This document shows positions 23,783-47,578 of a DNA stretch of 64,000 nucleotides, one piece after another. The notes under the pieces were generated by a model. The model did no database searches and had not been told where the DNA came from. It saw nothing but the letters and a program-made list of their open reading frames with translations. The position numbers and the translations under genes are program-made. Location of the stretch: contig JAHLWS010000065.1 in NCBI GenBank assembly GCA_019057795.1, forward strand, positions 1 through 64,000, given 5' to 3'. The first letter of the stretch is position 1; every line of letters begins with the position of its first letter. This DNA is from Promethearchaeota archaeon (GTDB taxonomy: Archaea > Asgardarchaeota > Lokiarchaeia > Sigyniarchaeales > SOKP01).

Positions 23783-24064
23783 TTAACCCCCCGCAAAGGG
23801 TAATAAAAAAGCTACTTTATCTCCATCTATCAACTTCTTTATTCCTTTGTTTTTATCTGTGATCAATTTATCGTTTATGACGATAGAGATATTTCCCTTC
23901 AAATTTTTTATTTCGTCGTCCCATATTAGATTTTTTATTGGATTATACTTGCTAAAGATCTTTGAAGTAAGTCCTTCAATAGTGTTTTCCTTTAATTCTA
24001 AAAACTCCCTATCTTTTCCGGTTATATCCTTAAAATCAGCAAAGTAAAGTATTTCGACTTTCAT
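23783..24064 (-). CDS. moaD: MoaD/ThiS sulfur carrier (SAMP-like)
   Basis: Beta-grasp size; C-terminal DGDKVAFLLPFAGG. Confidence 0.9.
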   Translation of the reverse strand: MKVEILYFADFKDITGKDREFLELKENTIEGLTSKIFSKYNPIKNLIWDDEIKNLKGNISIVINDKLITDKNKGIKKLIDGDKVAFLLPFAGG

Positions 24065-24087
24065 TATCGTGATATCTAAAATTTTAG

Positions 24088-25008
24088 TTAATAATAAGGT
24101 TCTCTGGTATCTACAACTTGTTTAACGATTTTTTCATACATAGATAGTGTGTGATTATTCTTCAATGCCTCTTTAATGTTTGTACCTAAATCAGACCGAA
24201 ACAGACAACCAAACAGATTTCCATCGCAGCCAACTCTTAATTTTGTGCATCCCATACAAAATTCATGCCCGGGAGTAATAGTTTCAACTTTTGCTGAGTT
24301 TGGTAGTGTAAACACCTTTCGGTTTTGCATATTGCCCCTTACTTCTATATTTGTTGCTTTTCTTTCAAATTCTTCTATTAAGGGCGTTACATCGAAATAA
24401 TACTTTTTATAAAATCCATTATCTTGACTGATTGATCTAGACACTTTATGTAATTCAATTAATTGCAAAATAAACTCATTTTCAGCACAAAAATTAATCA
24501 AATCATCTACTTCCTGATCATTTATGCCTTTAAGGACTACGTAATTCAATTTAATAGGAGTAAGTCCTACTTCTTTTGCTCTCATCAATCCTTTTAGAAC
24601 TGTTTCTAAGGAATCAGACCCATATATCTTCTTATAAATACCTGGTTTTAATGTTCCTAACGATACATTAACACGGTTTAAACCAGCATCATGAAGGTCT
24701 TGAGCTTTTTCAATTAAATAAAAACCGTTTGTTGTCATAGATATATCTTTGTAAAGTTGCAGATCAGAAACATTTCTAATAATCTCGACTATTTCTTCTC
24801 TGAGTAAAGGCTCTCCGCCAGTAAATTTAATTTTGGTTACTTTTAATATTTGTGCTAATATCCTACAAAGTTGAGTAATTTCATTAACGCTTAGGTCCGT
24901 CGTTTTGGGAATGAAACCTTCTCGATCGCAGTAAATGCAATTGTAATTACAATCAGAAGTGACCGAAAATCTAATGTGCTTTATTTCTCTGTTGCAATTG
25001 TCTTTCAT
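24088..25008 (-). CDS. moaA: GTP 3',8-cyclase (radical SAM)
   Basis: CNYNCIYC, FTGGEP, FCMGC...RVGCDG...CL. Confidence 0.93.
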   Translation of the reverse strand: MKDNCNREIKHIRFSVTSDCNYNCIYCDREGFIPKTTDLSVNEITQLCRILAQILKVTKIKFTGGEPLLREEIVEIIRNVSDLQLYKDISMTTNGFYLIEKAQDLHDAGLNRVNVSLGTLKPGIYKKIYGSDSLETVLKGLMRAKEVGLTPIKLNYVVLKGINDQEVDDLINFCAENEFILQLIELHKVSRSISQDNGFYKKYYFDVTPLIEEFERKATNIEVRGNMQNRKVFTLPNSAKVETITPGHEFCMGCTKLRVGCDGNLFGCLFRSDLGTNIKEALKNNHTLSMYEKIVKQVVDTREPYY

Positions 25009-25017
25009 AATATTTTC

Positions 25018-25449
25018 TTACATTTTTTTTATTTTTTCATCAACTTTCACTTCATTAATAACTGTTATCGGATACTGTCCTTTACTATCTTTCTCATACA
25101 TCTTTACAACATCCCAAATATTTAATAATGCAATGTTAACACCCATGAGAGCTTCCATTTCTACTCCAGTTTTTGAAATGCTTTTGACAGTACATGTCAC
25201 TTTAATAATATTATCGCCTTCATAATTAAAATCAATAACAACATTACTTATAGGAATTGGGTGACATAATGGAATTAAATCAGGAACTTTTTTAACGGCA
25301 TTAATCGCTGCGATTTTTGCAATTGTAAAAACATCCCCTTTTTTAACATTTTTATTTTTAATCCGTTCAATTGTTTCTTTCTTTAGATAGATTTTCCCAG
25401 ATGCTGTTGCTATTCTTAATATTGACTTTTTTTCTGAAATATCAATCAT
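25018..25449 (-). CDS. moaC: Cyclic pyranopterin monophosphate synthase
   Basis: KKGDV, LIPLCHP, TGVEMEAL, IWDVVK. Confidence 0.95.
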   Translation of the reverse strand: MIDISEKKSILRIATASGKIYLKKETIERIKNKNVKKGDVFTIAKIAAINAVKKVPDLIPLCHPIPISNVVIDFNYEGDNIIKVTCTVKSISKTGVEMEALMGVNIALLNIWDVVKMYEKDSKGQYPITVINEVKVDEKIKKM

Positions 25450-25538
25450 TTTTTCATAAGGAACTTTTTTTTTTCGTTTTTTTCGTTTTCATTTCTCATA
25501 CATATCGATAAATTTCGCTATTATTAAAAAATTTAGGA

Positions 25539-26642
25539 TTATAGGAGTTTAACATCAGTCGCCTTGAAATTGATATAAACTTCTTTTCCAAATTTAATAC
25601 CTAATTTTTGTTGAGATAATTTTGTAACGCTTACTAAAAATCTTTCTGAATTAGTTTTAATAATAACATGGATTAAATTACCAAGATCTCGAATTTCATC
25701 AACTTTACCTTTAAATAAATTCAATGAGCTAACATTTTGAGGTGGATTTTTAGCGAGAATAATACTCTCAGGATGGATACAAACTTTCACTTTTCCTTCT
25801 TTTTGATCCGATGAAGTGATAACAATATCATTTATTTTTATTTGATTAAGATTTGATGTTGGATCTACTTGGGCGTTACCTGAAAAAATATTTTCGTAAC
25901 CTACAAAATATGCTGTGAATTCATCTTTAGGAGATTGAAATATTATGCTTGGAGAATTAATTTGATTAATTTTCCCTTGATTTAAAACCGCTATTCTATC
26001 CGCTAACTTTATTGCTTCATATCGATCGTGAGTGCTTATTATGATTGTTTTTTCTTTATCTTGTTTGATTAATTTAATAAAACTATCTAGAATTTTAATG
26101 TTGATTGGATCCAAATTTGCTGAAACCTCATCAAGTAAGTAAATTTCCGGGTTGATTATAAAATTCATAGCGATTACAACTCTCTGCATTTCTCCTCCTG
26201 ATAATGTTCTAGCGTTTTTGTTTTCCATACCAGAGAGTCCTACGGATTCAATTATTTCTTCTACTAGATGTTTGTACTGTTTATATTGCAAACCTCTAAC
26301 TTTCAATCCATAAGCGATATTGTCAAAAACCGAAGCAGCTCTTACTAAGGGTTTTTGCCTTACGAATGATAATTTTCTTCGATATAGTGTTTTTTCTTTT
26401 CTTGATAAATTTGTTATCTCTTTACCTAAATATCTTATTTCCCCTTTCGTTGGAGATTCAAGTAAGCCTAAAATTCTCAATAAAGTGGTCTTCCCACTTC
26501 CATTTGGGCCGATTATGGCAAAAGTTTCTCCCTTATTAATTGAAAAATTAATATTTGATAGTACTGAGATTACATTACCATCTTTTTTATAGTAATCTTT
26601 TGAGAGGTTTTTAACCTCAAGAAGGCTCATTCTATTTATCAC
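25539..26642 (-). CDS. tupC: Tungstate ABC transporter ATPase with TOBE domains
   Basis: GPNGSGKT, LSGGEMQR, LLDE; operon context. Confidence 0.85.
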   Translation of the reverse strand: MINRMSLLEVKNLSKDYYKKDGNVISVLSNINFSINKGETFAIIGPNGSGKTTLLRILGLLESPTKGEIRYLGKEITNLSRKEKTLYRRKLSFVRQKPLVRAASVFDNIAYGLKVRGLQYKQYKHLVEEIIESVGLSGMENKNARTLSGGEMQRVVIAMNFIINPEIYLLDEVSANLDPINIKILDSFIKLIKQDKEKTIIISTHDRYEAIKLADRIAVLNQGKINQINSPSIIFQSPKDEFTAYFVGYENIFSGNAQVDPTSNLNQIKINDIVITSSDQKEGKVKVCIHPESIILAKNPPQNVSSLNLFKGKVDEIRDLGNLIHVIIKTNSERFLVSVTKLSQQKLGIKFGKEVYINFKATDVKLL

Positions 26643-27327
26643 TCCCTTGTAATCGCGTTAAACCGTAATTTAATATAAAAGCTATTGATATTAGGATAAT
26701 ACCTAACGCTATTGCCATACCAAATTCGCCCATACGCGTTTCTAATACAATTGAGGTAGTAAATGTTCTGGTTGCCCAACGAATGTTTCCACCGACGATC
26801 ATAACAGCCCCAACTTCAGATATTGCTTGACCAAAAGCTACTAGAAAACCCGCAATAATTGATTTTTTAGAATGTTTGATTAATTCCCACCAAAGTTGCC
26901 GTTCATTGGCCCCCAAAGAAAGAACCGTTTCTTTCAAGGCGGGATCTACGCTTTCTATTGCTGCCTTTCCAGTTCCAATTATGATTGGTACCGCTAAAAG
27001 AAATTGAGCGATAATCATGGCAGTCGTCGAATATAATAACCCTAGCGATCCAAATATTCCTCCAGCAGAAAGTAGTAAAAACACTATCAGTCCCATAACT
27101 ACTGGTGGAAATCCCATAAAAGTATTTATTAAATTGCTGAGAAATCTTTTTCCACGGAATTCTCTTAATCCAATGAAAGAGCCAATTGGTAAAGAAACTA
27201 AAGCTGCAAGAAACGTAGAAGTTAAAGAGACGCGAAATGAAACTTCAATCACGCTCCAGACTTCTGGATTTAAAGTAAAAATTAAAAAAATCGCTTCTAA
27301 TATTCCTTCTATAATTTCATTTGACAT
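26632..27327 (-). CDS. tupB: Tungstate ABC transporter permease
   Basis: FMGFPPVVMGL, FGQAISEVGAVMIVGGNI. Confidence 0.92.
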   Translation of the reverse strand: MSNEIIEGILEAIFLIFTLNPEVWSVIEVSFRVSLTSTFLAALVSLPIGSFIGLREFRGKRFLSNLINTFMGFPPVVMGLIVFLLLSAGGIFGSLGLLYSTTAMIIAQFLLAVPIIIGTGKAAIESVDPALKETVLSLGANERQLWWELIKHSKKSIIAGFLVAFGQAISEVGAVMIVGGNIRWATRTFTTSIVLETRMGEFGMAIALGIILISIAFILNYGLTRLQGSDK

Positions 27328-27345
27328 CTTTCTTTTGTTATCTAT

Positions 27346-28356
27346 TTAATTAAATTCTTGTTGGTAACTTGCCCAAAAAGAAACTTCTTCTTTAGTAGTT
27401 GGGCAATTATGTGTTGAATTACACATTCCAAAGGCACCATGAAATAGTGTTTCTCCGTTTTTTGTATAAGAGTTAATTAAGTTTTGCCCATAATCAGAAG
27501 TAAGAAATCCAACAAACCTCAATACGCTACTATATTTAACATGTGAATGCATATCGGGGTTCACGGGGATTACACCATAAGGATTAAGTAAATTATCCTC
27601 CCCTACAACTGATTCAGCTAAAATTTTTAAAGTTGTATAGGTATCGTTAAAAGAGAGCCAAGTACCTCGATCTACTAAAGTATAACCCTTATTATTCGCA
27701 TCTTGGTAAGTCATTTGTAAAGTAGCTGCCATACCTTGTCCAGTTTCGGTGTATTTATCAGGCTGTCCAAACCACTCCACATCCGGAGTAACATTGATAT
27801 TTCCCCATAAAGACAATTCTTTGAAATAAGTACCTGATCCATCTCCTCGAGAGTAGAACGCTGAATTGCCAGCATCTATGCTGTCTTTCAATTTTATCAT
27901 AACAGTAGTGATGTTATCATTTGGTAGTAATTCTACAGGATTGTTTTCATGACCAACTATAATAAAATCATTGTACATGACACATGCTCTATTAATCCCA
28001 AAGGGAGTTTGCCCATCGCTATCGTTTACAAATGCATCTTCTCTTGATCTAGAATGAACAAGTATTACATCTACATCGCCATTCTCACCATATAATAAAG
28101 CTTGTCCAGTTCCAACTGATAAAACTGAAACTTCGATTCCTGTTTTTTGAGTAAATTTAGGTAGCAAATAATCTAATAATCCAGAATCATAGGTAGAAGT
28201 TGTAGTTGCTAAAGTAATTCGATTAGGATTTCGTGCAGTTAGTATGTCAAATATAAAATAAGTTCCAAATGAACCCCCAATTATTATTAAAAGCATTAAA
28301 ATAAAGGCGGTTTTATGTTCACTTATTAATATTTTTAATGATTTTTGATGTGGCAC
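27346..28356 (-). CDS. tupA: Tungstate ABC transporter substrate-binding protein
   Basis: LATTTSTYDSGLL, GTGQAL, MYNDF, SRGDGSGT; GGAGG Shine-Dalgarno-like site before the GTG. Confidence 0.92.
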   Translation of the reverse strand: MPHQKSLKILISEHKTAFILMLLIIIGGSFGTYFIFDILTARNPNRITLATTTSTYDSGLLDYLLPKFTQKTGIEVSVLSVGTGQALLYGENGDVDVILVHSRSREDAFVNDSDGQTPFGINRACVMYNDFIIVGHENNPVELLPNDNITTVMIKLKDSIDAGNSAFYSRGDGSGTYFKELSLWGNINVTPDVEWFGQPDKYTETGQGMAATLQMTYQDANNKGYTLVDRGTWLSFNDTYTTLKILAESVVGEDNLLNPYGVIPVNPDMHSHVKYSSVLRFVGFLTSDYGQNLINSYTKNGETLFHGAFGMCNSTHNCPTTKEEVSFWASYQQEFN

Positions 28357-28813: not shown

Positions 28814-29230
28814 TTATATTGGATCAATCCGTTTTATGAGCATTATTTTATCAAAATCTGAATCATGAGAATAGATTTCTTGAATCTTATTCTCTAGTAA
28901 GCTTGCCGCAATTAAGGAATCCCTCCCCCCAGTCCTATACTTTTCAGCTATCTCAAATGCAAATAATATTGAAGATGTAGAAATGTCTAATACATTGATA
29001 TTTTTAGAATCGATAATAGCAATTAACCGCTTCTTAACCTCAACCTCTTTATATTTAAATGCTTTAACTAACGCATGAAAACATTCCATAAATACAATTG
29101 AAGGAATGCTTACGAGTTCTTTTCCATTAACTATATTAATTAAAAGTTCTTTACAAGGTAAATGTTCAGGAAGATCTTTATTTAATGCATACACAAGAAT
29201 GTTCGAATCGATCCCCTTCATGATTTCCAC
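28814..29230 (-). CDS. vapC: VapC-like PIN-domain toxin
   Basis: IDSNILVY, conserved E, RDSLIAA, IYSHDSDFDKI. Confidence 0.9.
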   Translation of the reverse strand: MEIMKGIDSNILVYALNKDLPEHLPCKELLINIVNGKELVSIPSIVFMECFHALVKAFKYKEVEVKKRLIAIIDSKNINVLDISTSSILFAFEIAEKYRTGGRDSLIAASLLENKIQEIYSHDSDFDKIMLIKRIDPI

Positions 29231-29448
29231 ATACTCTTACTTGCCTTTATTACATCTACGTTTTTTAAACCCTCTGATAATGGATTCTCTAAAATCTCGA
29301 GAATTTTATCTTTATTAACCATCTTTTTTCTAAGATCATGACAGAAAATAAAATAATCACCAATTTTCATGTTGAGATGATCTGCTTCCTTTTTAATCTC
29401 CCACCACTTCTCTTTTAACTCATCATCAATTACAATATTAGTCCTCAT
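29218..29448 (-). CDS. vapB: VapB-like antitoxin
   Basis: MRTNIVIDDEL N-terminus; overlaps the PIN gene. Confidence 0.75.
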   Translation of the reverse strand: MRTNIVIDDELKEKWWEIKKEADHLNMKIGDYFIFCHDLRKKMVNKDKILEILENPLSEGLKNVDVIKASKSMWKS

Positions 29449-29474: not shown

Positions 29475-29687
29475 AAAGCTTTACTTAATTTAAATTATTA
29501 TAGACTCTGGAAAAGCACTTGGAAGTTAAAGGATGTTACATTTCTTTTTTAGTAGGGGGTTACCACGGGGGAGGGAGATAATAGGGAGAAAATAATATCC
29601 ATCAGTTTAAGATAAAAAGTTAATTTAAAAATTAATAAATAAAAGTTAGTTAGGGCATTGTTATAATGTTAGTATCTTCGTCTAATT

Positions 29688-31697
29688 TTATTGAGAGAGA
29701 AATTTTTTAATATGATCAGAATTATTTTCCACATTTGTTAAGTTCTCGCATTTCCAGGTAGGATCTTGGAGTAATTCTGTACTAGAGCCGCCAATTTTTT
29801 CTAAAAGGCCAACAAATGCTCCAAAAACTAAAGCTAATCGATATTCAAAAGCAGAAATTTTTCCCCCTCCAATTCCAAAAAGTTTAATTTTACTAGAAGT
29901 AAGTTCGTTTAATACAATATCCGTCCAATAGTGGAGTGCCTCTAAAAAACTAAAATCATTCCCATCAGTCTGATGTATTTTTAAATACCTTTCATCAACC
30001 TTAACATCTCCGGGAAAATTTTTAGGAATGTAGCCAACAGTTTTAATTGAATTCGGATACGCCTTCTGGATATCACCTACAAGGTCACAGACACCAGCAA
30101 CTGTGCTTCCAGAGATAATTGTTCCTTCAAAAGATTTTAATGCTTCTAATAAATTTCTTTGTAAATCTTGCCCGAGTTCTTCCTTACTTAGTTTCGTACT
30201 TCCTGTAATAATGACAAGTGGTATGCTCAAACCACCCTCCTTTACGTCATACTCTTTTTTCAATCGATTTATTGCATCTTTATCCTTGAATCGAATAGCT
30301 AAACCAAGTATTAGTAAATGTCTTACTAATTTAATTCCTTGTAACTTATCATCTACAATGCTAAGACTATCCAGATCATTTAAATGAGAAGAGATCATCC
30401 ATCCTGCTGTACTAAACCTTATCCCCAATAAATAATTATGTAAACTTTCATTTATCTCTTTAGAAAATAATTTAAACAGCCCATTATTGAAATATGCCCA
30501 AGGCATGTTAATTCCAACTGAAATTTGCTCTTCACTCATTTTAATTATGTTTTTTATAGCTGGTAATGAATAATCAAGGATATCGATATTTTTATTAAGA
30601 GTAATATTAGTAATAAAGTAATTAACACCAGTATAGGTATCATCAGGATTAACATTATAAGATTGGTTATAACAGTCAAGCGACCTTTTAAGATTTAGTT
30701 TCTTCCATGAACCGCCTAAGCATGTTAAAGCATCGGTATCTTCAGGATCCAATTTAATTGCTTCTTCTAAATATTTTTGTCCTTGTTGATATTCAGTGCC
30801 ATTAGGATTATTAGCATAATATTTGTATAAAGCAAGACCAAGTTCTCTTAATGCTGAAGAATTATTGGAATTGACAAAATCAGTTAGTAGTTTTATATTA
30901 AGATCCCATTTTTCTACAGCTCTTGCTAGTTTTACAATTCTTAATATTAAATTAAGTTCTTTTGATTTATCAGGGGCAGTATCATATACCAATTCCAAAC
31001 TATTAATTTTATTGTTTATTTCTTGAGCAGTCATATATGCTCCATAATTCGCCTCATATATGCTCAAAAATTCTAAGCTATTCTTAAATTCATAGTCAGC
31101 ATCTTCAAGAATTGCCGCAATTCGATAGAATTGCCGCTTAATTTTATCTGGAATTTTAATACTTGGTTTATATAAATTATCATGTTGAATAACACTCCAA
31201 CAATGTTGAAGAAGAGTTCTTATTTGAAGTTCCGCTTTAAGTTGATAAATCTCATCAGGAACATCAAGATCTTGTAGATATATGGAATCTGGAATTAATT
31301 GTACAATATAATGATGAGATAAATATCCAAATTGATCCTCATCTAAAGTATCGAGTTTGTCCTCGCTATCTTCCCATTGTATTTTGAAATTCTCTTCTAT
31401 TATTTGGCAACATTTCTTTACATCATCTAGAGTTGGTAAAATAATACGTCCACCGCACAGATCGGTTAAATCTTCAACAGGATTTGGTCCATACTTCTCT
31501 GCTTTCCCAGGGCGTTGTATTTTTTCTGCATAACTCGTTACCGCTTTAGCACGTGTTTGAACTATGCTTTCAGGAGAAATATTTTTCGCAATTTTTTTAA
31601 GAATCAATTCAAGTATTTCTGCATATTTAACAAAATCTTTACGACATTCTTTGTAATTATTAATTTCTCTTATAAGCTCATCTCGATCTTTTTTCAT
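29688..31697 (-). CDS. RelA/SpoT synthetase domain + TPR + SLOG-like domain protein
   Basis: RAKAVTSYAEK, DLCGGR, GYLSHH, ELQIRTLLQHCW; central TPRs; C-terminal VIITGS...IISGSTVAGV...VGYIP...GIGGGKISAFEYRLA...IGG. Confidence 0.85.
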   Translation of the reverse strand: MKKDRDELIREINNYKECRKDFVKYAEILELILKKIAKNISPESIVQTRAKAVTSYAEKIQRPGKAEKYGPNPVEDLTDLCGGRIILPTLDDVKKCCQIIEENFKIQWEDSEDKLDTLDEDQFGYLSHHYIVQLIPDSIYLQDLDVPDEIYQLKAELQIRTLLQHCWSVIQHDNLYKPSIKIPDKIKRQFYRIAAILEDADYEFKNSLEFLSIYEANYGAYMTAQEINNKINSLELVYDTAPDKSKELNLILRIVKLARAVEKWDLNIKLLTDFVNSNNSSALRELGLALYKYYANNPNGTEYQQGQKYLEEAIKLDPEDTDALTCLGGSWKKLNLKRSLDCYNQSYNVNPDDTYTGVNYFITNITLNKNIDILDYSLPAIKNIIKMSEEQISVGINMPWAYFNNGLFKLFSKEINESLHNYLLGIRFSTAGWMISSHLNDLDSLSIVDDKLQGIKLVRHLLILGLAIRFKDKDAINRLKKEYDVKEGGLSIPLVIITGSTKLSKEELGQDLQRNLLEALKSFEGTIISGSTVAGVCDLVGDIQKAYPNSIKTVGYIPKNFPGDVKVDERYLKIHQTDGNDFSFLEALHYWTDIVLNELTSSKIKLFGIGGGKISAFEYRLALVFGAFVGLLEKIGGSSTELLQDPTWKCENLTNVENNSDHIKKFLSQ

Positions 31698-31746
31698 TTT
31701 AACTCATTTAATTTTTAAGTTAGTTTACATTTTACAATCTATTTAT

Positions 31747-34272
31747 TTACACTTTATCATGTTCATAAAGAGTTGGTAATATTACTTCTCGTAATTTAGG
31801 GTAAAAATCGGAATCAGACATGAGATATTTCTTCATAGATTGAATATCAGCAATATCAAACTCTAATTCACTGGGTAATTCAGTCTCCTTCAGATAAACA
31901 CCAAAAAATCTCTTCTGTCTTTTCGAAGCGAAGCTAATTTCCTTCATTACATAATCTGAATCGAGTATATGCGGTGTAATAAATAGTAAAAAAGCTTTAC
32001 ATCGCTCTAAATTTTCCACGATTGATCTTTTCCAATTCTCGCTAATAGGAATTCCTTCATCATACCAAATATGTATACCCTTTTTATTAAGATAGTCTAT
32101 TATTGGATATACTTGGAGTTTGTCTGTGTGAGAATAACTAACAAAAACAAATGGCTCATCTCCTTCATATGCTTCAAATGGCATTTGAAATTTCTGTGGA
32201 TCGGAAAGAAAGCTCTCAACTATCAGGTTTTCAAGAGAAGGATGCTTATTTATTTCTATAACCTCATTTACATTTACAACATTTTTCAGGGTCTCCATAA
32301 GACTAGAATCCTTTTTTAAATTCTCACAAAAATGATCTAATTTCTGCTTAGCACTATATGAATGACCTTGGAACATATAATAGATGCAAATATTTTCTAT
32401 TGCTGATATAAGGATTGTGTATTGACCAAATTTCACACGATCAAAAGATTCGGAAAAAATTTGATCGCAAAATGCATTACAAGAAGAAAGAAACTCACCG
32501 AAGTGGGACTCGTCGATAGTCATATCTGCTGTAAATGGACTGGATAATAAAACATCTCCCTCTTTTGTCATTATAGCAAATAATATAGGCTGTTCTGCAT
32601 CTAACTTCGGAGGTTTTACTACACGTTTTCTGAGCATTTGTCCCATTTGATCGTTTAAACGAGCTAATTCTATACGCTCCTCTAAAGGCGCTTTTGAATC
32701 TCTTAAGTGCTCCCATAAGTTTAGTTGATTAAGCAATTGATCGTGTTCACTTGATATCCTCATAGCTAAACGAGTAAGACCATATTTTTCAGCTATTTCT
32801 TGAGCTTTAGCCAATAATCTTCGGGCTTCTTCTAGATTCAATGAGATTAATGCTAATTTAGCTTGTAGAAGATAAGTTTCCCCCAAAATCCAAAATGAAT
32901 GTGATTTATCGGATAAATTTAATAGTTGGGTAATAAAAGGCTTGATCTCTTCTAAAATTTCTACTTCATTAGTCATTTGTAATTCAGCGAGGAGCAATTC
33001 ACATAAGTTAAGTAATGTTTTTAGTAAAATACCAATTTGTAAATCCTTTTCTTCAAGAATTTGCCTTAATAATTCTTCAGCTTTTACCCGATTGCGGGCT
33101 CGAGGACTGGTTTTCAATAGCAAAGCCTTATCAAAAAGATACACTAAATTAATAAATTTGTCTTTTAATTGACTGTTCAATTGCTCCAAATCACGAAGAG
33201 AATTCCGTGCTCGTTCAAGATCGCCCATATCAATTAATATCTGAATTAAAATGTTAAGGTTAAGAGCTAGTTCTCTTAAAACTCCTAACTCACGGCTTAA
33301 TCCCATAGATTGTTCTATACGCTCTAAAGCACGATCCAATTCTCCTTTCATTCGATAACTTTCAGATAAATTGTTAAAAACATAAATCATTAAGTATTTA
33401 TAGTTAAGTTCATTGTAAATTATCAAGCTTTGCTCAAAAAGCATAATACTACGATCCAATTCACCTCTCATTGCATAACTATCTCCCAAATCGCTAAGAA
33501 CCCTTGCTATCATAAATTTATTGTTAAGTTCATTGTAAATTATCAAGCTTTGCTCAAAAAGCATAATACTACGATCCAATTCACCTTTAACCAGATGTAC
33601 CCCTGCCATATAGTAAAGACAATATCCAATAACATTTTTATTACCACTTTCCTCGGCAAGAGCCAAGCCTTGCTTCAAGTATTTTAAAGCACGGTCAAAA
33701 TCACCTTTTAGATACGTAAATACATGGGCAATTCCTACAAGGGAACGCGCAATTTCTTTTTTAGCACTAAGTTCTTCTCGCAATGATATACTGAGCTCAA
33801 ACTGTTTTACTGCATGATCAGCCTCACTTTTTTGTTCGTAAGCCCATCCTTTCAGAAAAGCTATATACGCCTCTCTTTGCTTGTACTCTGCGGGTAATTC
33901 TAGTGTTAAAGTTTTTAGCAGTTCTTCTCCCTGCTTAATGATATCGTGAGCTTTATCCGTTGGACCTTGACCCATACGTAATAGAGCTAAAGCCATTATT
34001 AGTAAGATATCAACTGATAGAAGGTTATTTCCTAATCCTAAACTCTCTTTATATGTTTGTTCGGCAAGTTTTACACTATCTTCATATAAACCTCGCTCAC
34101 ATAAGAGCTCACATTTGAGGAAATAACATAAAACTATATCGTGAAGAGTGTGTCCTCCTTTTTCCTCAAAGCTCTTTATTAATTGCTCTGCTTCATCAAG
34201 CTTATATTCATCAATGAGTTGTTTTGCTCGAATTAATTCCTTAGGTTCTAAATAAGTCATATGTTTTTCCAT
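31747..34272 (-). CDS. TPR-repeat + longin-like + TIR domain protein (paralog 1)
   Basis: 40-aa TPR repeats; FAIMTKEGDVLLS domain; TIR motifs VFVSYSHTD, IWYDEGI, SDYVMKEI. Confidence 0.85.
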   Translation of the reverse strand: MEKHMTYLEPKELIRAKQLIDEYKLDEAEQLIKSFEEKGGHTLHDIVLCYFLKCELLCERGLYEDSVKLAEQTYKESLGLGNNLLSVDILLIMALALLRMGQGPTDKAHDIIKQGEELLKTLTLELPAEYKQREAYIAFLKGWAYEQKSEADHAVKQFELSISLREELSAKKEIARSLVGIAHVFTYLKGDFDRALKYLKQGLALAEESGNKNVIGYCLYYMAGVHLVKGELDRSIMLFEQSLIIYNELNNKFMIARVLSDLGDSYAMRGELDRSIMLFEQSLIIYNELNYKYLMIYVFNNLSESYRMKGELDRALERIEQSMGLSRELGVLRELALNLNILIQILIDMGDLERARNSLRDLEQLNSQLKDKFINLVYLFDKALLLKTSPRARNRVKAEELLRQILEEKDLQIGILLKTLLNLCELLLAELQMTNEVEILEEIKPFITQLLNLSDKSHSFWILGETYLLQAKLALISLNLEEARRLLAKAQEIAEKYGLTRLAMRISSEHDQLLNQLNLWEHLRDSKAPLEERIELARLNDQMGQMLRKRVVKPPKLDAEQPILFAIMTKEGDVLLSSPFTADMTIDESHFGEFLSSCNAFCDQIFSESFDRVKFGQYTILISAIENICIYYMFQGHSYSAKQKLDHFCENLKKDSSLMETLKNVVNVNEVIEINKHPSLENLIVESFLSDPQKFQMPFEAYEGDEPFVFVSYSHTDKLQVYPIIDYLNKKGIHIWYDEGIPISENWKRSIVENLERCKAFLLFITPHILDSDYVMKEISFASKRQKRFFGVYLKETELPSELEFDIADIQSMKKYLMSDSDFYPKLREVILPTLYEHDKV
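33403..33586. repeat. Two identical 64-bp units with a 120-bp period (33403-33466, 33523-33586)
   Basis: Both encode GELDRSIMLFEQSLIIYNELN in adjacent TPRs. Confidence 0.9.
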
Positions 34273-34308
34273 AAATTATCGGTTTAAAAACTTGGATTTA
34301 TACTTTAA

Positions 34309-34325
34309 AAATACAATTAATATAT
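34309..34325 (-). promoter_or_regulatory. 17-bp upstream element shared by both TIR genes (second copy at 36889-36905)
   Basis: aaatacaattaatatat lies about 40-50 bp upstream of each start. Confidence 0.55.
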
Positions 34326-34475
34326 TAAGTAATTAAGTCAATTACAATTTTAAATATAATACAATTTGTTTTCTCCAGTTATTTATATCATTTTCTTTTT
34401 TTCAATTTTTATATCCTTCTTTCAACTGATTATTAATTTATTCTTTAATAATTATTATTCGATTTTGCAAATCAT

Positions 34476-36839
34476 TCATCCATGAAGCACAGGAAACAGT
34501 GTATTTCTTAACTTATCATAAAATTCGGTTTCTGGCATGAGGTATTTTTTCATTGCTTGAATTTCATCCATATCAAACATTAGCTCATGAGGTAATTCTG
34601 TTTCTTTCAAATAAATCGTGAAAAATGGCTTATGCATTTTCATTGCATAATTAATTTCTTTCCTCACATATTCTGAATCTATTATATGAGGGGTTACAAA
34701 CACCAAAAAAGCATTACACTTATCTAAGTTTTCTACTATGGATTTCTTCCAATTCTCGCTAATAGGAATCCCTTCATCATACCAGATATTTAATCCAATT
34801 TTATTAAGATAATCTATAATAGGATAGACTTGGAGTTTGTCTGTATGAGAGTAGCTAGCAAAAACAAATGCCTCATCTCCTTCATATGCTTTAAATGGCA
34901 TTTGAAATTTGTGTGGATCAGATAGAAAACTCTCAACAATTAATTCCTCAAGAGAAGGATGTTCATTTATTGATATAATCTTATTCTCGTTAACAATATT
35001 TCCCAGAAATTTCATTAAAGTGGGATCTTTTTTAATTGCATCACAGAAATGGGTTAATTTCTGCTGAGCACTATATGAATGTCCTTGGAACATATAATAG
35101 ATGCAAATATGTTCTATTGCTGATATAAGGATTGTGTATTGACCAAATTTCACACGATCAAACGATTCTGAAAAAATTTGATCACAAAAAGTCATACAAG
35201 AGGTTAAAAACTCACCGAAGTGGGTCTCATCAATAGTCATATCCGCAGTAAAGGGGCAGGATAACACCATCTCACCCTCTTTTGTCATTATAGCAAATAA
35301 TATAGGCTGTTCTGCTTCCAATTTTGGATATTCCATCACACGTTTCTTGGTCATGTGTTTTATTTGATTAGCCAAACGAGCTAATTCTATACGTTCTCCC
35401 ATAGGGGCATTTGATTCTCTTAATCCCTCCCACACACTCAATTCATTTAATAATTTATCATGTTCTTCTGAAATACTCATAGCTAACCTATTAAGACCAA
35501 ATTTTTCAGCAATTTGCTGTCCTTTAGCCAATAATCGTCTAGCTTCTTCCAGGTTAGATGATATTAAAACCATTTTTGCTTGTAATAGATACGCTTCGGC
35601 TTGAAGCGAGTATGAATGTGTTTTTTCGGCAATATTTAATAGTCGACCAATATAATCTTTTATTTCATCCACGATTTCCATATCGTTGGTATTACGTAAA
35701 TCTACTAAGAGTATGTCACAAAGATTAATTATAGCAATTTTTTGCCCAGCATCCTCTTCAATTACCTCTTTTAATAATTTTTGAGCCTTAGCTAAATTGC
35801 TAATTCGCGGTTTAGTTTTCAACAATAAAGCTTTGCTTACACGATATAGTCTATTAACCCCTTTATTTTGTGTTTGATCGGAAATTTCTTTTATCTGTTG
35901 TAAGTATTCCTCTGCTTGGTTAATCTCATTTTTACTTATAGTTATTCGTAATAATGTGTACATAAATGAAGCGAGAAAAGGAATATTATGACCGACTTGC
36001 CTATACAATGTCAAACCCCGTTCACTAAATATTAAAGCTTGATCAAAATCACCTTGGCTATAATAAATATTGCCAATGCAGTCTAAAAAATATGCGATAT
36101 TTATTTTACCGCTATTAAGTTTCTCAGCAAGCGCTAAACCTCGTTTATAGTAGATGAGGGCATGATCCAATTCACCTCTTTGATTATAAAAAAATCCCAT
36201 ATGATAGAAAAGCCATGTAAGAAACGCATTAAAACCTTTTTCTTCAAGTGCAAGAGCTTTATCATAGTATTTCAGAGCTTGTTCCCAATCACCTTGAGAT
36301 AAGTAATTTAACCCAATATATTGATAAAATCGTGCAATTTCATGCTTATTACCTAGTTTTTTTTGCAGTGCTAATCCATATTTAAGATATTTTAAACTAA
36401 GCTCTAAATCCCTTTCAAGATAATTATCCACATTAATATAACCTTTTATAAGAGCAATAGCAGATTCTATCCTGTTGTGTTCAATTGTCGTTTCTAGAGT
36501 AATAGTTTTAAAAAATTTTTCACATTTCATAATCACCTCAAGACTCTCGTTATATCTCTCAAGATACATAAAAGCCTCAGCCATTTCAATGGATACATCA
36601 ATTGATTGGATAGGAGTTCCTAATTTTTCAGCGTCTTTATAAGTTTTTTTGGCAAGTTTGAGAGCATCTTCATGGAACCCTAGCTTGTTTAGGAGAGTAC
36701 ACTTAATGATATTGTTGGAAAGTTGATCTTGAGATGTAATACCTTCATTTTTCTCTATTTCTTTGATTATCTTAAAGGCTTCAATAAATTTACCTTCTTC
36801 CTTAAGATGTTTTGCTTGAAGCAATTCTTCAGGATCCAA
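34476..36839 (-). CDS. TPR-repeat + longin-like + TIR domain protein (paralog 2)
   Basis: TPRs; FAIMTKEGEMVLS; TIR motifs VFASYSHTD, IWYDEGI, SEYVRKEI. Confidence 0.85.
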   Translation of the reverse strand: MDPEELLQAKHLKEEGKFIEAFKIIKEIEKNEGITSQDQLSNNIIKCTLLNKLGFHEDALKLAKKTYKDAEKLGTPIQSIDVSIEMAEAFMYLERYNESLEVIMKCEKFFKTITLETTIEHNRIESAIALIKGYINVDNYLERDLELSLKYLKYGLALQKKLGNKHEIARFYQYIGLNYLSQGDWEQALKYYDKALALEEKGFNAFLTWLFYHMGFFYNQRGELDHALIYYKRGLALAEKLNSGKINIAYFLDCIGNIYYSQGDFDQALIFSERGLTLYRQVGHNIPFLASFMYTLLRITISKNEINQAEEYLQQIKEISDQTQNKGVNRLYRVSKALLLKTKPRISNLAKAQKLLKEVIEEDAGQKIAIINLCDILLVDLRNTNDMEIVDEIKDYIGRLLNIAEKTHSYSLQAEAYLLQAKMVLISSNLEEARRLLAKGQQIAEKFGLNRLAMSISEEHDKLLNELSVWEGLRESNAPMGERIELARLANQIKHMTKKRVMEYPKLEAEQPILFAIMTKEGEMVLSCPFTADMTIDETHFGEFLTSCMTFCDQIFSESFDRVKFGQYTILISAIEHICIYYMFQGHSYSAQQKLTHFCDAIKKDPTLMKFLGNIVNENKIISINEHPSLEELIVESFLSDPHKFQMPFKAYEGDEAFVFASYSHTDKLQVYPIIDYLNKIGLNIWYDEGIPISENWKKSIVENLDKCNAFLVFVTPHIIDSEYVRKEINYAMKMHKPFFTIYLKETELPHELMFDMDEIQAMKKYLMPETEFYDKLRNTLFPVLHG

Positions 36840-37100: not shown

Positions 37101-38150
37101 CTAGGGTGAGAACCAATTTCCCCCCTTCATTTTTGATTCTTTGAGGACCTCTCTATCATAGGCACCGAATTCTTCCTCGGCCCTGTTGATGTAAGCATTA
37201 AATCCCTTGAAATCGAATCCGGCGAGGTTGCAGAGGATAGCGTCTAGGGACACGAGGTCTCTGCCAAAGGCCACAACCCCCAAGCCCTCTATAATGTTGT
37301 ATTTGCGCTTGAACATATCTTCAAACTTACCTTCAGGATGGAGGACGGCCGTGTTGTTCAACGCTTCACAAATCCCGTAAATGTTGAAGAGAGAGTGGTA
37401 AATTTTGTTAATGTCGACGATACTCTTTGCAAGCATGCTATTTTCTGGTCCATGCCACCATGGCCTCCATGGATCGGGTATCATTCCGAAAAGGTTCTTC
37501 AAAGTGAATGTGTTGAAGTGTTTCAGTTTAGCTAAGCTGATGAACGTCGATCCACGCAGGTCGTAAAGTCTTTTCGGTATCATACTATAAAGCTTGTCTA
37601 TTTGAACCGGTTTGAAACGTGTCTCCACTATCCTCTTTACTTCTGTTGGATCTGCTATCCTTCCACTCCAAACTTCATCGGTCACGCAGATGTAACTGAC
37701 ATTGAACTCCTTGAAGAGATCTGTGAACCCATATCTGCCAAGGAAGGCTTTATCCTCCTTCTTGATCTGATCCCAGTATCCACCTTTCTTAAACCAGTCC
37801 CAATCCGGGTTTTCGATAAACCAGTTCCAACCGCCGCCATCTATTATCCACTTTAAGTTCACCTCCTTGTCCTCGACGACGAAGCTCATCCCCTCCTTTA
37901 GGAGTTCATTAACCACGTGTGTGGAGGATTCCGTGACCACGATATGGGCGTCAAGTGCCTCCAATATCGTTCTCAAAGTCTTGGAATCGATGAAATGTGC
38001 TGGTTCTGTTGATACCCAGTTTGGTTTGATGATGATGGTCTCGGATTCGAGCCAAGGGTCAATCAATAGCTGCTTTAATTCATCGGAGTTGCTTACTTTC
38101 GCTATGGTTATCTGACCGAACTTGTGATAGGGAACAGACATGTTCAACAT
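37101..38150 (-). CDS. DUF362 domain protein
   Basis: IIKPNWV, LAKLK, TLKNLFG, DLVSLDA; visibly GC-richer than its flanks. Confidence 0.75.
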   Translation of the reverse strand: MLNMSVPYHKFGQITIAKVSNSDELKQLLIDPWLESETIIIKPNWVSTEPAHFIDSKTLRTILEALDAHIVVTESSTHVVNELLKEGMSFVVEDKEVNLKWIIDGGGWNWFIENPDWDWFKKGGYWDQIKKEDKAFLGRYGFTDLFKEFNVSYICVTDEVWSGRIADPTEVKRIVETRFKPVQIDKLYSMIPKRLYDLRGSTFISLAKLKHFNTFTLKNLFGMIPDPWRPWWHGPENSMLAKSIVDINKIYHSLFNIYGICEALNNTAVLHPEGKFEDMFKRKYNIIEGLGVVAFGRDLVSLDAILCNLAGFDFKGFNAYINRAEEEFGAYDREVLKESKMKGGNWFSP

Positions 38151-38570
38151 ATAGTTTTTAAATGAGTTTAGCTAATTCTTTAGGGTCTGAATGAGACATT
38201 TAATCATCTTTACTTAATAGATTTGATAAATAAACTTGGATTAGTTTTTTTTATACAATAGAAATATTAAGATAACAAAAATTATAAATATCTTCTTTTC
38301 TCTTTTAATCATCTCGATTGATTATATGTTCAGAAAATGGTTTGATATTTTTTAGAGATTAAATGGTGCGAATTGTATAAATTGTAAAAAAAAATCATTT
38401 TCGTATTTCTTAGAAAAACCTTTAAATCTAGAATAATTGAGAATGAGATCACAGAGAAAATTGATTTTAAGCGTAAATTTTTTTTTATTTTCTTTTTTAG
38501 GATTTCTCTCTTTTAAAAATACGAAAACGCTTTAAAATTTAAAAAAGAACATTAAAAATAAGAAAAAAAG

Positions 38571-39308
38571 TTAAGGCATTGTTATAATGTTAGTATCTTC
38601 GTCAAGATTTATTATACCCTTTACTGCAAGCTGTTTAATAGTTCTAACAGCCATAATTGGAGGAACATCAAGCAGTTTTTTCAAGTCATTAAGATTACAG
38701 CTACCTTGAGCCATAATAGTGGCTATTATATCAACCTCAGGAAAATCTTCTTTAGAATTTTCTATTAAAAACGATGTAAAGTAGCTATCCCTTTTTAAAT
38801 AAGTTAGTTTTTTATTTAAATCTTCCATCTTTTGCCCTGTATATGTTGTTTTTAGTTGATTTTCCTTGTTTTCGTTATCGATCTTTTTCTGGTCTAACTG
38901 TGACTTTTCTAACTCTTTTGAAGCGATTTTTTCGTTTATGGTATTTAACTTCGATAAATTGTTTTCAAGCTCAACTTTAGGTGTCTTGAGATCGTCATTT
39001 ATACTCTCTAAAGTGCCTTTTAATTCCGAAACTTTTGATAAGGATTCGTCCTTTGTAGATTTTAAGCTTTCAAGTTTTTTATTTAAATCATCTGCTTTAA
39101 TTTTTAATCCAGTTAATTCATTCTTTTGAATTTCAATATTTCTTTCTATTTTTTGGAGATCATCATGCTCTAATTTCATCAATTTCCATGTTGAGCTTAA
39201 ATTTTGAATAATATTTTCGCAATTTTTTTGAAAGGCTTGCTGATATTCGTCAAAATATTTTTCAAGTTGTTCAATTGATCCTAAAATATCTTTTAAACTT
39301 GAACTCAT
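38571..39308 (-). CDS. Coiled-coil protein with C-terminal winged helix
   Basis: Long E/K/L heptads, then DIIATIMAQGSCNLNDLKKLL...IKQLAVKGIINLD. Confidence 0.75.
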   Translation of the reverse strand: MSSSLKDILGSIEQLEKYFDEYQQAFQKNCENIIQNLSSTWKLMKLEHDDLQKIERNIEIQKNELTGLKIKADDLNKKLESLKSTKDESLSKVSELKGTLESINDDLKTPKVELENNLSKLNTINEKIASKELEKSQLDQKKIDNENKENQLKTTYTGQKMEDLNKKLTYLKRDSYFTSFLIENSKEDFPEVDIIATIMAQGSCNLNDLKKLLDVPPIMAVRTIKQLAVKGIINLDEDTNIITMP

Positions 39309-40063
39309 TAGAAATCAACCTCCTCTTTTAGGGTTATCGTTCCATCCGTTGGATTATATTCGATTGGTCCGTTATCTTCAAGCATTTTTACTATAATTTT
39401 TTTGGCTTGGTCTTCTCTCATATCAATTGCAACTAATATATTTTTTAAATCTAAAGCACTTCCTAATTGTAAGGCTTTGATAAACTGAAATAATGAAGAG
39501 TTTATGTATTTCTTATTAATTAAAATTTTCATGGCAGCTACTCTATTTTCGTACGATTGAACGAATTTTTCCTTCTTTATAAAAGTATTTTCAAGCTCAG
39601 CTTCTAATGCGTTTAATTCTACTTCAAATTTTTCAATTTCTTTATATAAAGTAAACAATCTATCCTCAAGTTCTCTTAGACGCTGATCCCGACTTATTAA
39701 TTCTTCTTGTTTCAATTTAATGATCTGTTGTGTCTCATTCAACTCATTTTGTTTTTCCTGAATTTTTTGTAATAATTCTTGGCGCTTTTTCGTTAATTCA
39801 GCATTATCTTCTTCAAACTTTACGATATCTCGTTGATTTTGAGAAATCTCATTCTTGAAAGAATTAATTTCTTCATTGTTAGATTCTATAGTTTTCATTA
39901 GGTTGTTTTTTTCATCTTCGTATTTTTCTAACCCTTCAAGAATGCTTTCGGGTTGCATTCTTAATTTCGGTATATAATCGCTATTTAATCCGCTAATATC
40001 TACAATTATCGAAGTCATTTTCTTTAAAGATGTTTTAGCATCTAATATTGGTACCTCACTCAT
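39308..40063 (-). CDS. Coiled-coil protein with C-terminal winged-helix-like domain
   Basis: Long heptads, then LDLKNILVAIDMREDQAKKIIVKML...IEYNPTDGTITL; 1-nt overlap with the next gene. Confidence 0.72.
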   Translation of the reverse strand: MSEVPILDAKTSLKKMTSIIVDISGLNSDYIPKLRMQPESILEGLEKYEDEKNNLMKTIESNNEEINSFKNEISQNQRDIVKFEEDNAELTKKRQELLQKIQEKQNELNETQQIIKLKQEELISRDQRLRELEDRLFTLYKEIEKFEVELNALEAELENTFIKKEKFVQSYENRVAAMKILINKKYINSSLFQFIKALQLGSALDLKNILVAIDMREDQAKKIIVKMLEDNGPIEYNPTDGTITLKEEVDF

Positions 40064-41235: not shown

Positions 41236-42114
41236 ATGGAAAAACAATATAAAATTGGGATTTTTTACGGACCGGCTCCAGATACAGAAATGTTAGCCCA
41301 AAAATTTGTTGGCAACCTTATCAACGACGATGAATTTTGTAAAGCATGTGAATTGCTCGAGCAAAAAGTTAAATGCGATCACTGTAGAGAACATTTAAGA
41401 AACTTTTCAAGTTCGGTTTATTTTTAGGATAAAATAGGAGAAAATATCCCAGATTTTATTGAAAACCCTGAAGAGTTTTTGCCAAAAACTATACCCCCAG
41501 TAGATTTTTTGATGGTAGTTGGAATTCATCAAGACTTACTTTCAGAATTACCAGAGTATTTGAAAGATAAAAAAATTAAAGCGGTAATTATCCCTATTGA
41601 GAATCCTAAATGGGTGCCCCCAGGATTACAAGTACAAGTATTAGAAGATTTTGAAAGATTGGGAATTCAAGCAGCGTTTCCAAAACCTTTTTGTTCATTG
41701 AGTAAAGAACTGAACGAATACATCAAAGTAGGGTTTAATCTCACTAAAAACCACGATTATATTATTGAATTTATTGATTATTACAAAATTGGAGAACCCA
41801 TTGTTTCATTCATTTTGAGCGACGATGGAAAAGCAATTTTGGATACATGCGTTTTACAAAGCGCACCATGCGGCTCTACATTCTATATCCTCCAACAATT
41901 GAAAGCTAAATATATTGATGACGATGAATTAAGTTTAAACGAAAGAATTAGTAAAGCTCATCATTCCTATCCTTGCAATGCATCAATGGATAAAGATTTA
42001 ATATTAAAAGATTCAATACTCCATATAGGTGGAATTCTCGTAAGAAACGCGGTTAGAAACGAATTGGGGCTTAAAGAACATGAAGGTCGTAAAATGGCAT
42101 ATGTCGCCCCTTAA
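41236..42114 (+). pseudogene. DUF166 family protein interrupted by an in-frame TAG at 41425-41427 (readthrough, mutation or error)
   Basis: ORFs 41236-41427 and 41479-42114 share a frame; FIENPEEFLP, PKPFCSL, SAPCGST, HHSYPCNASM. Confidence 0.75.
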
Positions 42115-46865: not shown

Positions 46866-47578
46866 ATGAAGTTAAAACGAATAGATTACGTCTTTATAAT
46901 TCTGTTAATCGTGCTTACGATTATTTCAATTGATTTCCTATTAAATGAAGCTCATAGAGAAGCTATAGAAAACCTTTCCAAATATCCCCCCTTTCAAAAT
47001 TTAGCATCTGGGCTTCTAATAACCTTTCTTGTTTGTTTAATAGGAAACCTATTACCTATTCCTACACCATATACATTTGTAGTTTGCTTTAGTTCGCTTC
47101 CATTTTTACAATTAAATTTGATCATCCCTTTAATTGTCGCTTTAAAGCAAGTTTAGGTTGTTTATTTGGCGAATTGGGGGGTTATTTTGTTGGTAGAGGC
47201 GTTTCAGAGTTCATTTCTGAAGAACAGAGAAAAAAATTAAAGAATTATCAACAGTTCTTAGTAGAACATCCAAAAATTGCTCCTTTTGCTATATTTTTTG
47301 CCGCTTTAACTCCCATATCTGACGATCTTATCACAATTCCCCTTGGATTAATAAAATATTCTTTGAAAAAGACAATATTTTGGTGTTGGCTTGGGAAATT
47401 AGGTTTGATGTTAATTTTCTCTTATAACTTCTTAAATATTTGCAGTTTATTGGGAGGAGAAAGTTGGATTCTAAGCGTAGTTTCATTATATGTTATGGTA
47501 ATCTTCTTATATGCTATGTTGAAAATAAATTTTCTAGACTTAGTAAAAAAATATGTAAAAAGAAAATCAAATAAATAA
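46866..47578 (+). pseudogene. DedA/VTT-domain membrane protein split by a -1 frameshift near 47141-47147
   Basis: GNLLPIPTPY in frame 0; ASLGCLFGELGGYFVGRG, LTPISDD, PLGL in the -1 frame. Confidence 0.7.

Follow-up and report, generated by a model that had tools for sequence, protein, structure and literature searches.

In Thoeris type I, and also in the SLOG-bearing types III and IX, TIR genes with a catalytic glutamate, often several of them, stand beside an effector in which a SLOG domain is joined to an enzyme. Alarmone synthetases can also be placed under a sensor's control; in CapRel, a fused sensor gates the synthetase in anti-phage defence. Two further classes, type VII with SLATT effectors and type VIII with CMP hydrolase-TPR effectors, are both activated by cyclic ADP-ribose (cADPR), according to the part of a recent preprint covered here, which connects the type VIII TPR module with what Burroughs and Aravind predicted in 2020 (bioRxiv 10.64898/2025.12.03.692087). 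RelA/SpoT homologue (RSH) enzymes are rare in archaea (PMC8646023). The subject of this analysis is a set of three genes in an Asgard archaeon of the class Lokiarchaeia, two encoding TPR-longin-TIR sensors and one a RelA-SLOG effector. The window, i.e. the whole stretch of DNA analysed, comprises 64,000 nucleotides (positions 1 to 64,000 of contig JAHLWS010000065.1, assembly GCA_019057795.1). Judged from its sequence, the island that contains these genes is probably an alarm circuit, predicted to halt cell growth.

The three co-oriented open reading frames (ORFs) of the original prediction were confirmed on the minus strand: sensor P0003 (34476..36839; 787 amino acids (aa), TTG start), its paralogue P0002 (31747..34272; 841 aa) and effector P0001 (29688..31697; 669 aa). 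They are separated by 203 base pairs (bp) and, where about 50 bp had been given, by 49 bp. In the source genome (100% complete, 7.5% contamination), P0001 is the sole RelA_SpoT gene, and P0002 and P0003 are two of three TIR_2 genes; the third (G000:C9:12314-12718) encodes a stand-alone TIR domain of 134 aa that keeps the glutamate. In these labels, G### denotes a genome, L### a locus and C## a contig, with G000 being the source genome.

P0001 has three parts, all encoded on the minus strand: a small alarmone synthetase domain (aa 12-214; 31056-31664) and TPR-S-like helical repeats (aa 221-470; 30288-31037), both assigned from Pfam and fold searches, and a TRPM/LSDAT-type SLOG domain (aa 492-669; 29691-30224), recognised by fold matches of the AlphaFold2 model (predicted local distance difference test score 89.5). 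The synthetase has a RelA_SpoT Pfam match over the cut-off (aa 48-178) and folds like RelQ and RelP (5dec, Z 16.7; 6ewz, Z 16.0). The TPR region scores 25.4 bits against TPR-S (cut-off 27.6) and matches the central region of ASK1 (5ulm; Z 18.1, root-mean-square deviation 3.9, 246 residues). Best fold matches of the SLOG domain are 1rcu (TM1055; Z 17.9), the ADP-ribose-sensing MHR of TRPM2 (Z 17.0 and 16.0) and 1weh (Z 16.0); ThsA is absent among the listed matches of this region. Against LSDAT_prok (PF18171; cut-off 25.4 bits), P0001 scores 14.3 bits and its homologues 23.9-26.3, and a profile search of the domain against the PDB gave no significant SLOG match, the resemblance to nvTRPM2 being weak (E 0.056). 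The SLOG assignment is weak from sequence and firm from the modelled structure, and the domain originally called SLOG-like is of the TRPM2 type, with Z of 16-18 over aa 492-669. Pfam scan and model are both without an HD hydrolase, TGS or ACT domain; the synthetase begins near residue 12, and the protein ends without a RyR or longin tail.

In 156 family members, R49, K51, K59, R62, D79, R84, Y125, H129, E156, Q158, H172 and K177 are conserved at 97-100%, and S55 at 93%. R49, K51, S55, K59, R62, D79, G82, R84, Y125, E156 and Q158 match ATP-donor and acceptor residues of FaRel2, with equal spacing in the first motif, and their conservation in the family is 93-100%; the donor-site residues are spaced like FaRel2 R64/K66/S70/K74/R77, D90, R95, Y128, E145 and Q147 (PMC11782079). 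By this alignment the catalytic residues are intact, with donor and acceptor motifs present, and the intact synthetase with TPRs that had been proposed stands. The glutamate before His172, conserved in RelQ-type enzymes, is variable in this family (Q171 in P0001), and the acceptor is therefore not readable from sequence; a search of papers on acceptor-specificity residues gave no result. The block holds no small adjacent gene as an antitoxin candidate, the nearby vapB pairing with vapC; the TPR-SLOG part of P0001 could be a fused inhibitor.

Both sensors have TPR_12/TPR_MalT and TIR_2 Pfam matches over the cut-offs. A model of the last 322 residues adopts a TIR fold (Z 14-16, best 16.3), and E778 of P0002 (YVMKEI) and E728 of P0003 (YVRKEI) align with the glutamate of WVHKEL in the SARM1/TIR-1 TIR domain. 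The two TPR-TIR sensors of the original prediction are thus real, but a longin domain between TPRs and TIR had been overlooked; its fold matches are TRAPP, AP-2/AP-3 and VAMP7 (Z 10-12). In P0002, the longin domain lies at 32197-32592 (model fold match) and the TIR domain at 31774-32163 (Pfam and fold); in P0003, they lie at 34917-35312 and 34494-34883, all on the minus strand. The ThsB_TIR model (cut-off 21.2) gives 25.2 for P0003 and 18.1 for P0002, and TIR_2 is a far better fit for both.

As had been proposed, the TPR arrays are variable: mean identity in 30 sensors is 32-34% for the TPRs, 63% for the longin and 74% for the TIR domain, and between P0002 and P0003 it is 33% (N-terminal TPRs), 78% and 71%, respectively. 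One 120-bp TPR unit of P0002 has recently been duplicated (33396-33586), and a swap of sensor ends is seen in L001, where an N-terminus of the P0003 type is followed by a TIR of the P0002 type. The P0002 TIR falls within an effector-adjacent subclade of the TIR tree (support 0.996); across genera, the effector-adjacent TIR is 88-91% identical, its TPR end only 34-46%. The sensors are amplified in tandem, and in L175, L154 and L142 they share arrays with small GTPases and with TPR-longin genes that lack a TIR; they probably derive from such GTPase-linked TPR-longin arrays. A TIR-less TPR-longin paralogue lies near a small-GTPase-like gene in the source genome itself (G000:C21:78783-83997), and its family is the likely origin of the sensors. 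An Atlas search with the longin part returned matches that were all under 0.9.

The predicted linkage of TIR and RelA-SLOG genes recurs across genomes. Among the 161 genomes of the class, 30 have the effector. Twenty Lokiarchaeia loci retain at least 1 kb of upstream sequence, and the distance from the effector to a TIR gene is no more than 1 kb in 15 of them and no more than about 5 kb in 18. TIR density near the effector is 112/Mb at the Lokiarchaeia loci and 65/Mb at 80 metagenome loci, against a background of about 0.8/Mb for the class as a whole (494 matches, with 161 genomes at about 3.6 Mb each). Two bacterial hosts, one with 14 matches in 6.6 Mb and the other with a single match in 4.0 Mb, give 0.25-2.1/Mb. 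Related loci in these counts are not independent of each other; the TIR partner lineages are. In the TIR tree, the TPR-longin-TIR family stands apart from the beta-helix TIRs that a second Asgard clade uses, and both are distinct from many bacterial lineages; partner TIRs are fused to beta-helix, WD40, NB-ARC-TPR, HSP70 or phosphofructokinase domains. This diversity fits a diffusible signal, and the catalytic glutamate is present in all 85 TIR domains checked. At each locus of the close clade (at least 74% identity) where a TIR could be called, the effector is preceded at 20-60 bp by a TPR-longin-TIR gene, and these genes form arrays of one to three. A Heimdallarchaeota homologue adjoins a DUF4062-NACHT-WD40 gene instead of a TIR gene. 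Two unusual partners, both beside the effector, are a TIR-phosphofructokinase (L008:3507-5783) and an HSP70-TIR protein (L069:10504-13791).

The same sensor family also flanks another effector class. In G067 (L140:4174-9696) and G100 (L146:882-6404), a DUF4231 (SLATT) gene stands between two TPR-longin-TIR genes, and the synthetase effector was not found in either genome. This gene order looks like that of type VII Thoeris, here in Lokiarchaeia. The L172 operon runs Nudix-TIR-TIR-TIR-effector-SLATT_4-like gene. Such a swap of effectors is the best independent sign that the sensor TIRs make a signal. Elsewhere, a SLATT gene lies between TIR genes on G143:C284.

The block DUF362-TIR-TIR-effector is enclosed by 45-bp direct repeats, identical at 41 of 45 bases and present at only these two places in the genome; neither they nor the enclosed DUF362 gene featured in the original prediction. 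Sequence comparison identifies the left boundary (38569..38613, minus strand) as the repeat's original, namely the last codons and stop of the coiled-coil/winged-helix gene 38571-39308; the right boundary (29648..29692, minus strand) begins directly after the effector stop. G122, G109 and L039 carry this block about 6 kb away, and G059 and G093 carry it elsewhere. At four-fold-degenerate sites, it is 82-96% identical to G122/G109, compared with 37-49% for flanking core genes; most block genes are 88-99% identical to G124, and the effector is 62-63% identical to that of another genus, against 35-39%. High silent-site identity in the block and low identity in core genes show that the block was recently transferred between species.

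How the block came to be enclosed is a separate matter; tandem duplication with deletion explains the repeats as well as integration does. No excised circle or empty-site joint occurs among the listed contigs (four runs, whose contigs cover most of the stretch with none spanning it), and no integrase was recognised near the repeats among the window genes that were scanned. An assembly artefact is an unlikely explanation for the island's position; in G124, too, the gene end that forms the left boundary is followed immediately by a TIR gene (L158). Patchy spread, recent transfer and tandem-amplified, variable sensors are, when taken together, typical of defence loci.

A profile search found at least 150 full-length relatives of P0001 at the 50%-identity level, which are mostly bacterial and mostly end in a C-terminal RyR domain. 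A Nudix gene lies within 1.5 kb in 39 of 66 metagenome loci and in none of the 20 Lokiarchaeia genome loci; L172 carries one at the operon head despite none within 1.5 kb. A midpoint-rooted tree places all Asgard proteins in a single clade (support 1.0) within the bacterial diversity, which suggests a single acquisition. This clade splits into a longin-tailed branch, in which the G-Y-x-S-x-H and H-x-x-x-Y-K motifs are lost, and a tail-less branch, including P0001, in which they are nearly always intact.

Several variations on this theme were noted. Deeper-branching effectors are directly followed by a conserved gene of about 100 aa (L168:10042-10350, L170:10070-10372, L171:5458-5754; mutual identity 43-62%, no Pfam match, Atlas leads including ParB-like clusters), which might stand in for the Nudix partner. 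TPR-SLOG proteins without a synthetase (L121:3929-6052 in G061, L080:15183-16352 and several G156 contigs with up to six SLOG matches) suggest that different N-terminal parts have been combined with this sensor module. At bacterial loci, the effector often has a TrkA_N-RyR or AAA-ATPase-RyR gene as a neighbour (L044:229-2187, L065, L071, L074; L106, L107), and effectors may be fused to a C-terminal KaiC-like ATPase (L076:3529-6873) or carry Nudix within the ORF (L067:5512-7992, L078:1867-4305).

In the favoured mechanism, a trigger would be bound by the variable TPR solenoid, whereupon the TIRs, perhaps reached by way of the longin domain, would assemble and cleave nicotinamide adenine dinucleotide (NAD+). 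Going by TIR chemistry and the catalytic glutamate, they would release an ADP-ribose-type signal; the best guess is canonical cADPR or ADP-ribose (ADPR), because SLATT effectors, too, have these sensors on either side and the SLOG domain is of the TRPM2 type. Once bound to SLOG, the signal would act across the TPR-S bridge to free the synthetase from inhibition, and the synthetase, with its conserved active-site residues, would then transfer pyrophosphate from ATP to a purine nucleotide. The product is likely to be (p)ppGpp or (p)ppApp. Pyrophosphorylated tRNA, which the original prediction had offered alongside these alarmones, is rather unlikely on two indirect grounds: RelQ/RelP-type folds are the closest, and the bacterial family keeps a Nudix partner. 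The product would be expected to accumulate, since no HD_4 hydrolase match was found in the genome and there is no Nudix gene beside P0001; it would drain ATP/GTP and arrest growth, most likely to protect the cell from viruses or other mobile elements. Horizontally, the block itself spreads and exchanges sensor ends. Coupling between the TIRs and the effector is very probable. The complete chain, from trigger through ADPR-type signal, SLOG gating and nucleotide pyrophosphorylation to growth arrest in defence, is given slightly better than even chances. A more far-reaching version can be put forward only tentatively: an Asgard immune pathway in which eukaryote-like TPR-longin-TIR receptors, possibly GTPase-controlled, were joined to a bacterial effector, with an ADPR-type messenger acting on a TRPM2-like domain to elicit alarmone synthesis.

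This picture is complicated by a number of observations that weigh against it. As of 2021, (p)ppGpp was undetected in archaea (PMC8646023), and TIR operons with SLOG-patatin and SLOG-4TM effectors gave no defence in E. coli (Table S2). The longin-tailed sister clade in Lokiarchaeia keeps the TIR link with its acceptor-site motif gone; synthesis is therefore not always the output and is dispensable in some cases. Position 531 is Ser in the P0001 clade and Gly in 145 of 156 family members. Some effectors have no TIR neighbour (L168, L171, L132, L135), and of the 54 metagenome loci whose flank is 3 kb or longer, just 19 have a TIR gene within 5 kb. Conversely, TPR-longin-TIR genes occur without this effector in G066, G139, G116, G097, G136, G137 and G084 (81-98% complete; effector not found with the queries used), and single sensors sit among housekeeping genes in genomes without the effector or a DUF4231 match over the cut-off. 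The island, too, is surrounded by housekeeping genes and lies in no defence cluster, and the longin and GTPase links leave room for non-immune signalling.

That last point leads to a reading in which the same TIR-to-SLOG relay serves the cell's own signalling: the longin domain would tie the TIR to membrane events or to small GTPases, and what the synthetase makes would be a reversible stress or dormancy signal. The longin fold in both sensors, their arrays with TIR-less paralogues and small GTPases, and the longin tail and membrane-type beta-helix TIR partners of the sister clade all agree with it, as do the fact that this effector family makes up nearly all RelA_SpoT matches in the class and the presence of Nudix, a possible reset, at bacterial loci. 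Patchy distribution, recent transfer and sensor amplification nevertheless fit conflict better; SLATT effectors stand beside the same sensors, the island has no GTPase gene, and no hydrolase was found. Signalling of this kind is regarded as possible though not probable. Slightly less credible still is that the genes travel together and are wired differently: the TIRs could be NAD-depleting effectors, the SLOG domain could itself be enzymatic and produce or clear the signal, or the TIR could be switched on by what the synthetase makes. Sensors on their own in several genomes are in keeping with such wiring, and the solved TIRs nearest in sequence, SARM1/TIR-1 and AbTir, are NADases; catalysis occurs in some SLOG clades (PMC9503650), and here W591 is invariant and E618 near-invariant in the 156 family members. 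A conserved effector-adjacent TIR behind a divergent TPR end is, on the other hand, what a matched signal leads one to expect, and the SLOG effectors of Thoeris I act as sensors.

A relay without any diffusible signal, in which the TIR activates the effector by direct contact with the TPR-S region, has a precedent in the reported BcTir/Tpr complex between TIR and TPR proteins (10.1101/2023.05.26.542521) and could draw on the unusual conservation of the effector-adjacent TIR; it is improbable in view of the many distant TIR lineages, all with the catalytic glutamate, with which the effector family pairs. Lastly, the neighbourhood might be a matter of chance, inherited inside one clade, as many Lokiarchaeia loci are related and some share a recent transfer. 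This has been largely refuted and retains very little credence: distinct TIR lineages show this linkage in two Asgard clades and in many bacteria, the adjacency expected by chance is about 0.6-1.5% per locus, and in a KSB1 genome the only TIR_2 gene sits 473 bp from the effector.

Other features of the locus lie outside the proposed alarm circuit. The DUF362 gene (37101..38150, minus strand; Pfam) was considered as a core component and rejected; outside the closest loci (L001, L006, L039) it is not found next to TIR genes, it has a paralogue on contig C22, and is a passenger within the mobile block. It is preceded by a remnant 5' end of a TPR-longin-TIR gene, comprising an upstream element and first codons (38161..38250, minus strand), that resembles the starts of TIR genes in L172, L147, L119 and L137. 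The vapBC pair (28814..29448, minus strand; Pfam PIN over the cut-off, VapB weak) is indeed present 239 bp downstream of the effector, as the original prediction had it, yet was rejected as a system member; it lies beyond the repeats, and none of the related loci compared has it next to the effector. A C-rich stretch (29540-29600) between the right repeat and vapB has only two short matches elsewhere in the genome, both on contig C78. Further downstream, 23783-28356 (minus strand) holds tungstate ABC transporter-like and moaC/moaA/moaD-like genes (read from translations), i.e. ordinary metabolism, and marks the end of the variable region. On the other side, 38571-40063 (minus strand) encodes tandem coiled-coil proteins of 251 and 245 aa that are kept in relatives; the second has a weak winged-helix match at its end, and the 3' end of its gene is the insertion site. 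ORFs at 41236-42114 and about 46866-47578 appear split in two here and are single in L002 and L001, through a frameshift or stop that is possibly a sequence error. A bacterial promoter scan gave chance-level results, and the RNA run yielded only scattered low-depth contigs.

In the more far-reaching version, one nucleotide signal would be converted into a second, and an archaeon would gain (p)ppGpp or (p)ppApp. The proposed circuit would add a new effector class to TIR signalling, join NAD-derived immune messengers and alarmones, which have been studied apart, and provide a concrete candidate for archaeal alarmone synthesis. The tail-less form of 669 aa is the simplest family member and isolates the question of whether SLOG alone gates the synthetase, and the TPR-longin-TIR sensors bear on the meeting of TIR immunity with GTPase-linked trafficking domains in relatives of eukaryotes. 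As to novelty, PADLOC recognised isolated domains only, with no ThsA match; PDC-S33 matches just the synthetase part (aa 6-168; model 28-175 of 349). No synthetase effector is among the 11 verified Thoeris types in the covered part of the source, and neither SpoT nor PF04607 appears in the covered part of Yirmiya Table S1. The 2026 Asgard defensome paper makes no mention of SLOG, RelA or alarmones (PMC13700489). The statement that no TIR-to-SLOG-to-alarmone relay has been described holds in so far as no paper on such a system was found in the literature covered; an earlier prediction is possible in the full list of 29 predicted Thoeris effectors, in Burroughs and Aravind 2020 or in Burroughs 2015, which lay outside it.

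In comparison with known systems, the locus is Thoeris-like in its proposed working, with glutamate-bearing TIRs, a SLOG effector and a recurrent operon, but it is not type I. The effector enzyme is a RelA/SpoT synthetase instead of SIR2, the SLOG domain is of the TRPM/LSDAT type, and the sensors are TPR-longin-TIR proteins of 790-840 aa from the TIR_2 family instead of small ThsB. Type VII is approached through the shared sensor family in G067 and G100, with no SLATT gene at this locus; type VIII effectors, in the covered part of their description, also carry a TPR module, with no CMP hydrolase here. P0001 shares catalytic fold and residues with RelQ/RelP and with the toxic small alarmone synthetases FaRel, FaRel2, CapRel and Tas1, but has no recognised antitoxin or zinc-finger-like domain, its proposed regulator being a nucleotide-binding SLOG domain; from long RSH enzymes (Rel/RelA/SpoT) it differs by lacking HD hydrolase, TGS and ACT domains. 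TRPM2 MHR1/2 and ASK1 have folds in common with its SLOG and TPR parts, with no channel or kinase here, and a shared fold does not mean a shared ligand. Also close are the TIR-linked bacterial RelA-TPR-SLOG-RyR proteins, on which no publication was found and which are homologous over the full 669 residues at 30-40% identity; unlike these, the P0001 clade has no RyR tail, is usually without Nudix, and has Asgard TPR-longin-TIR sensors. To this family the locus adds a minimal intact archaeal form, longin-bearing sensors, the SLATT swap and evidence of recent transfer.

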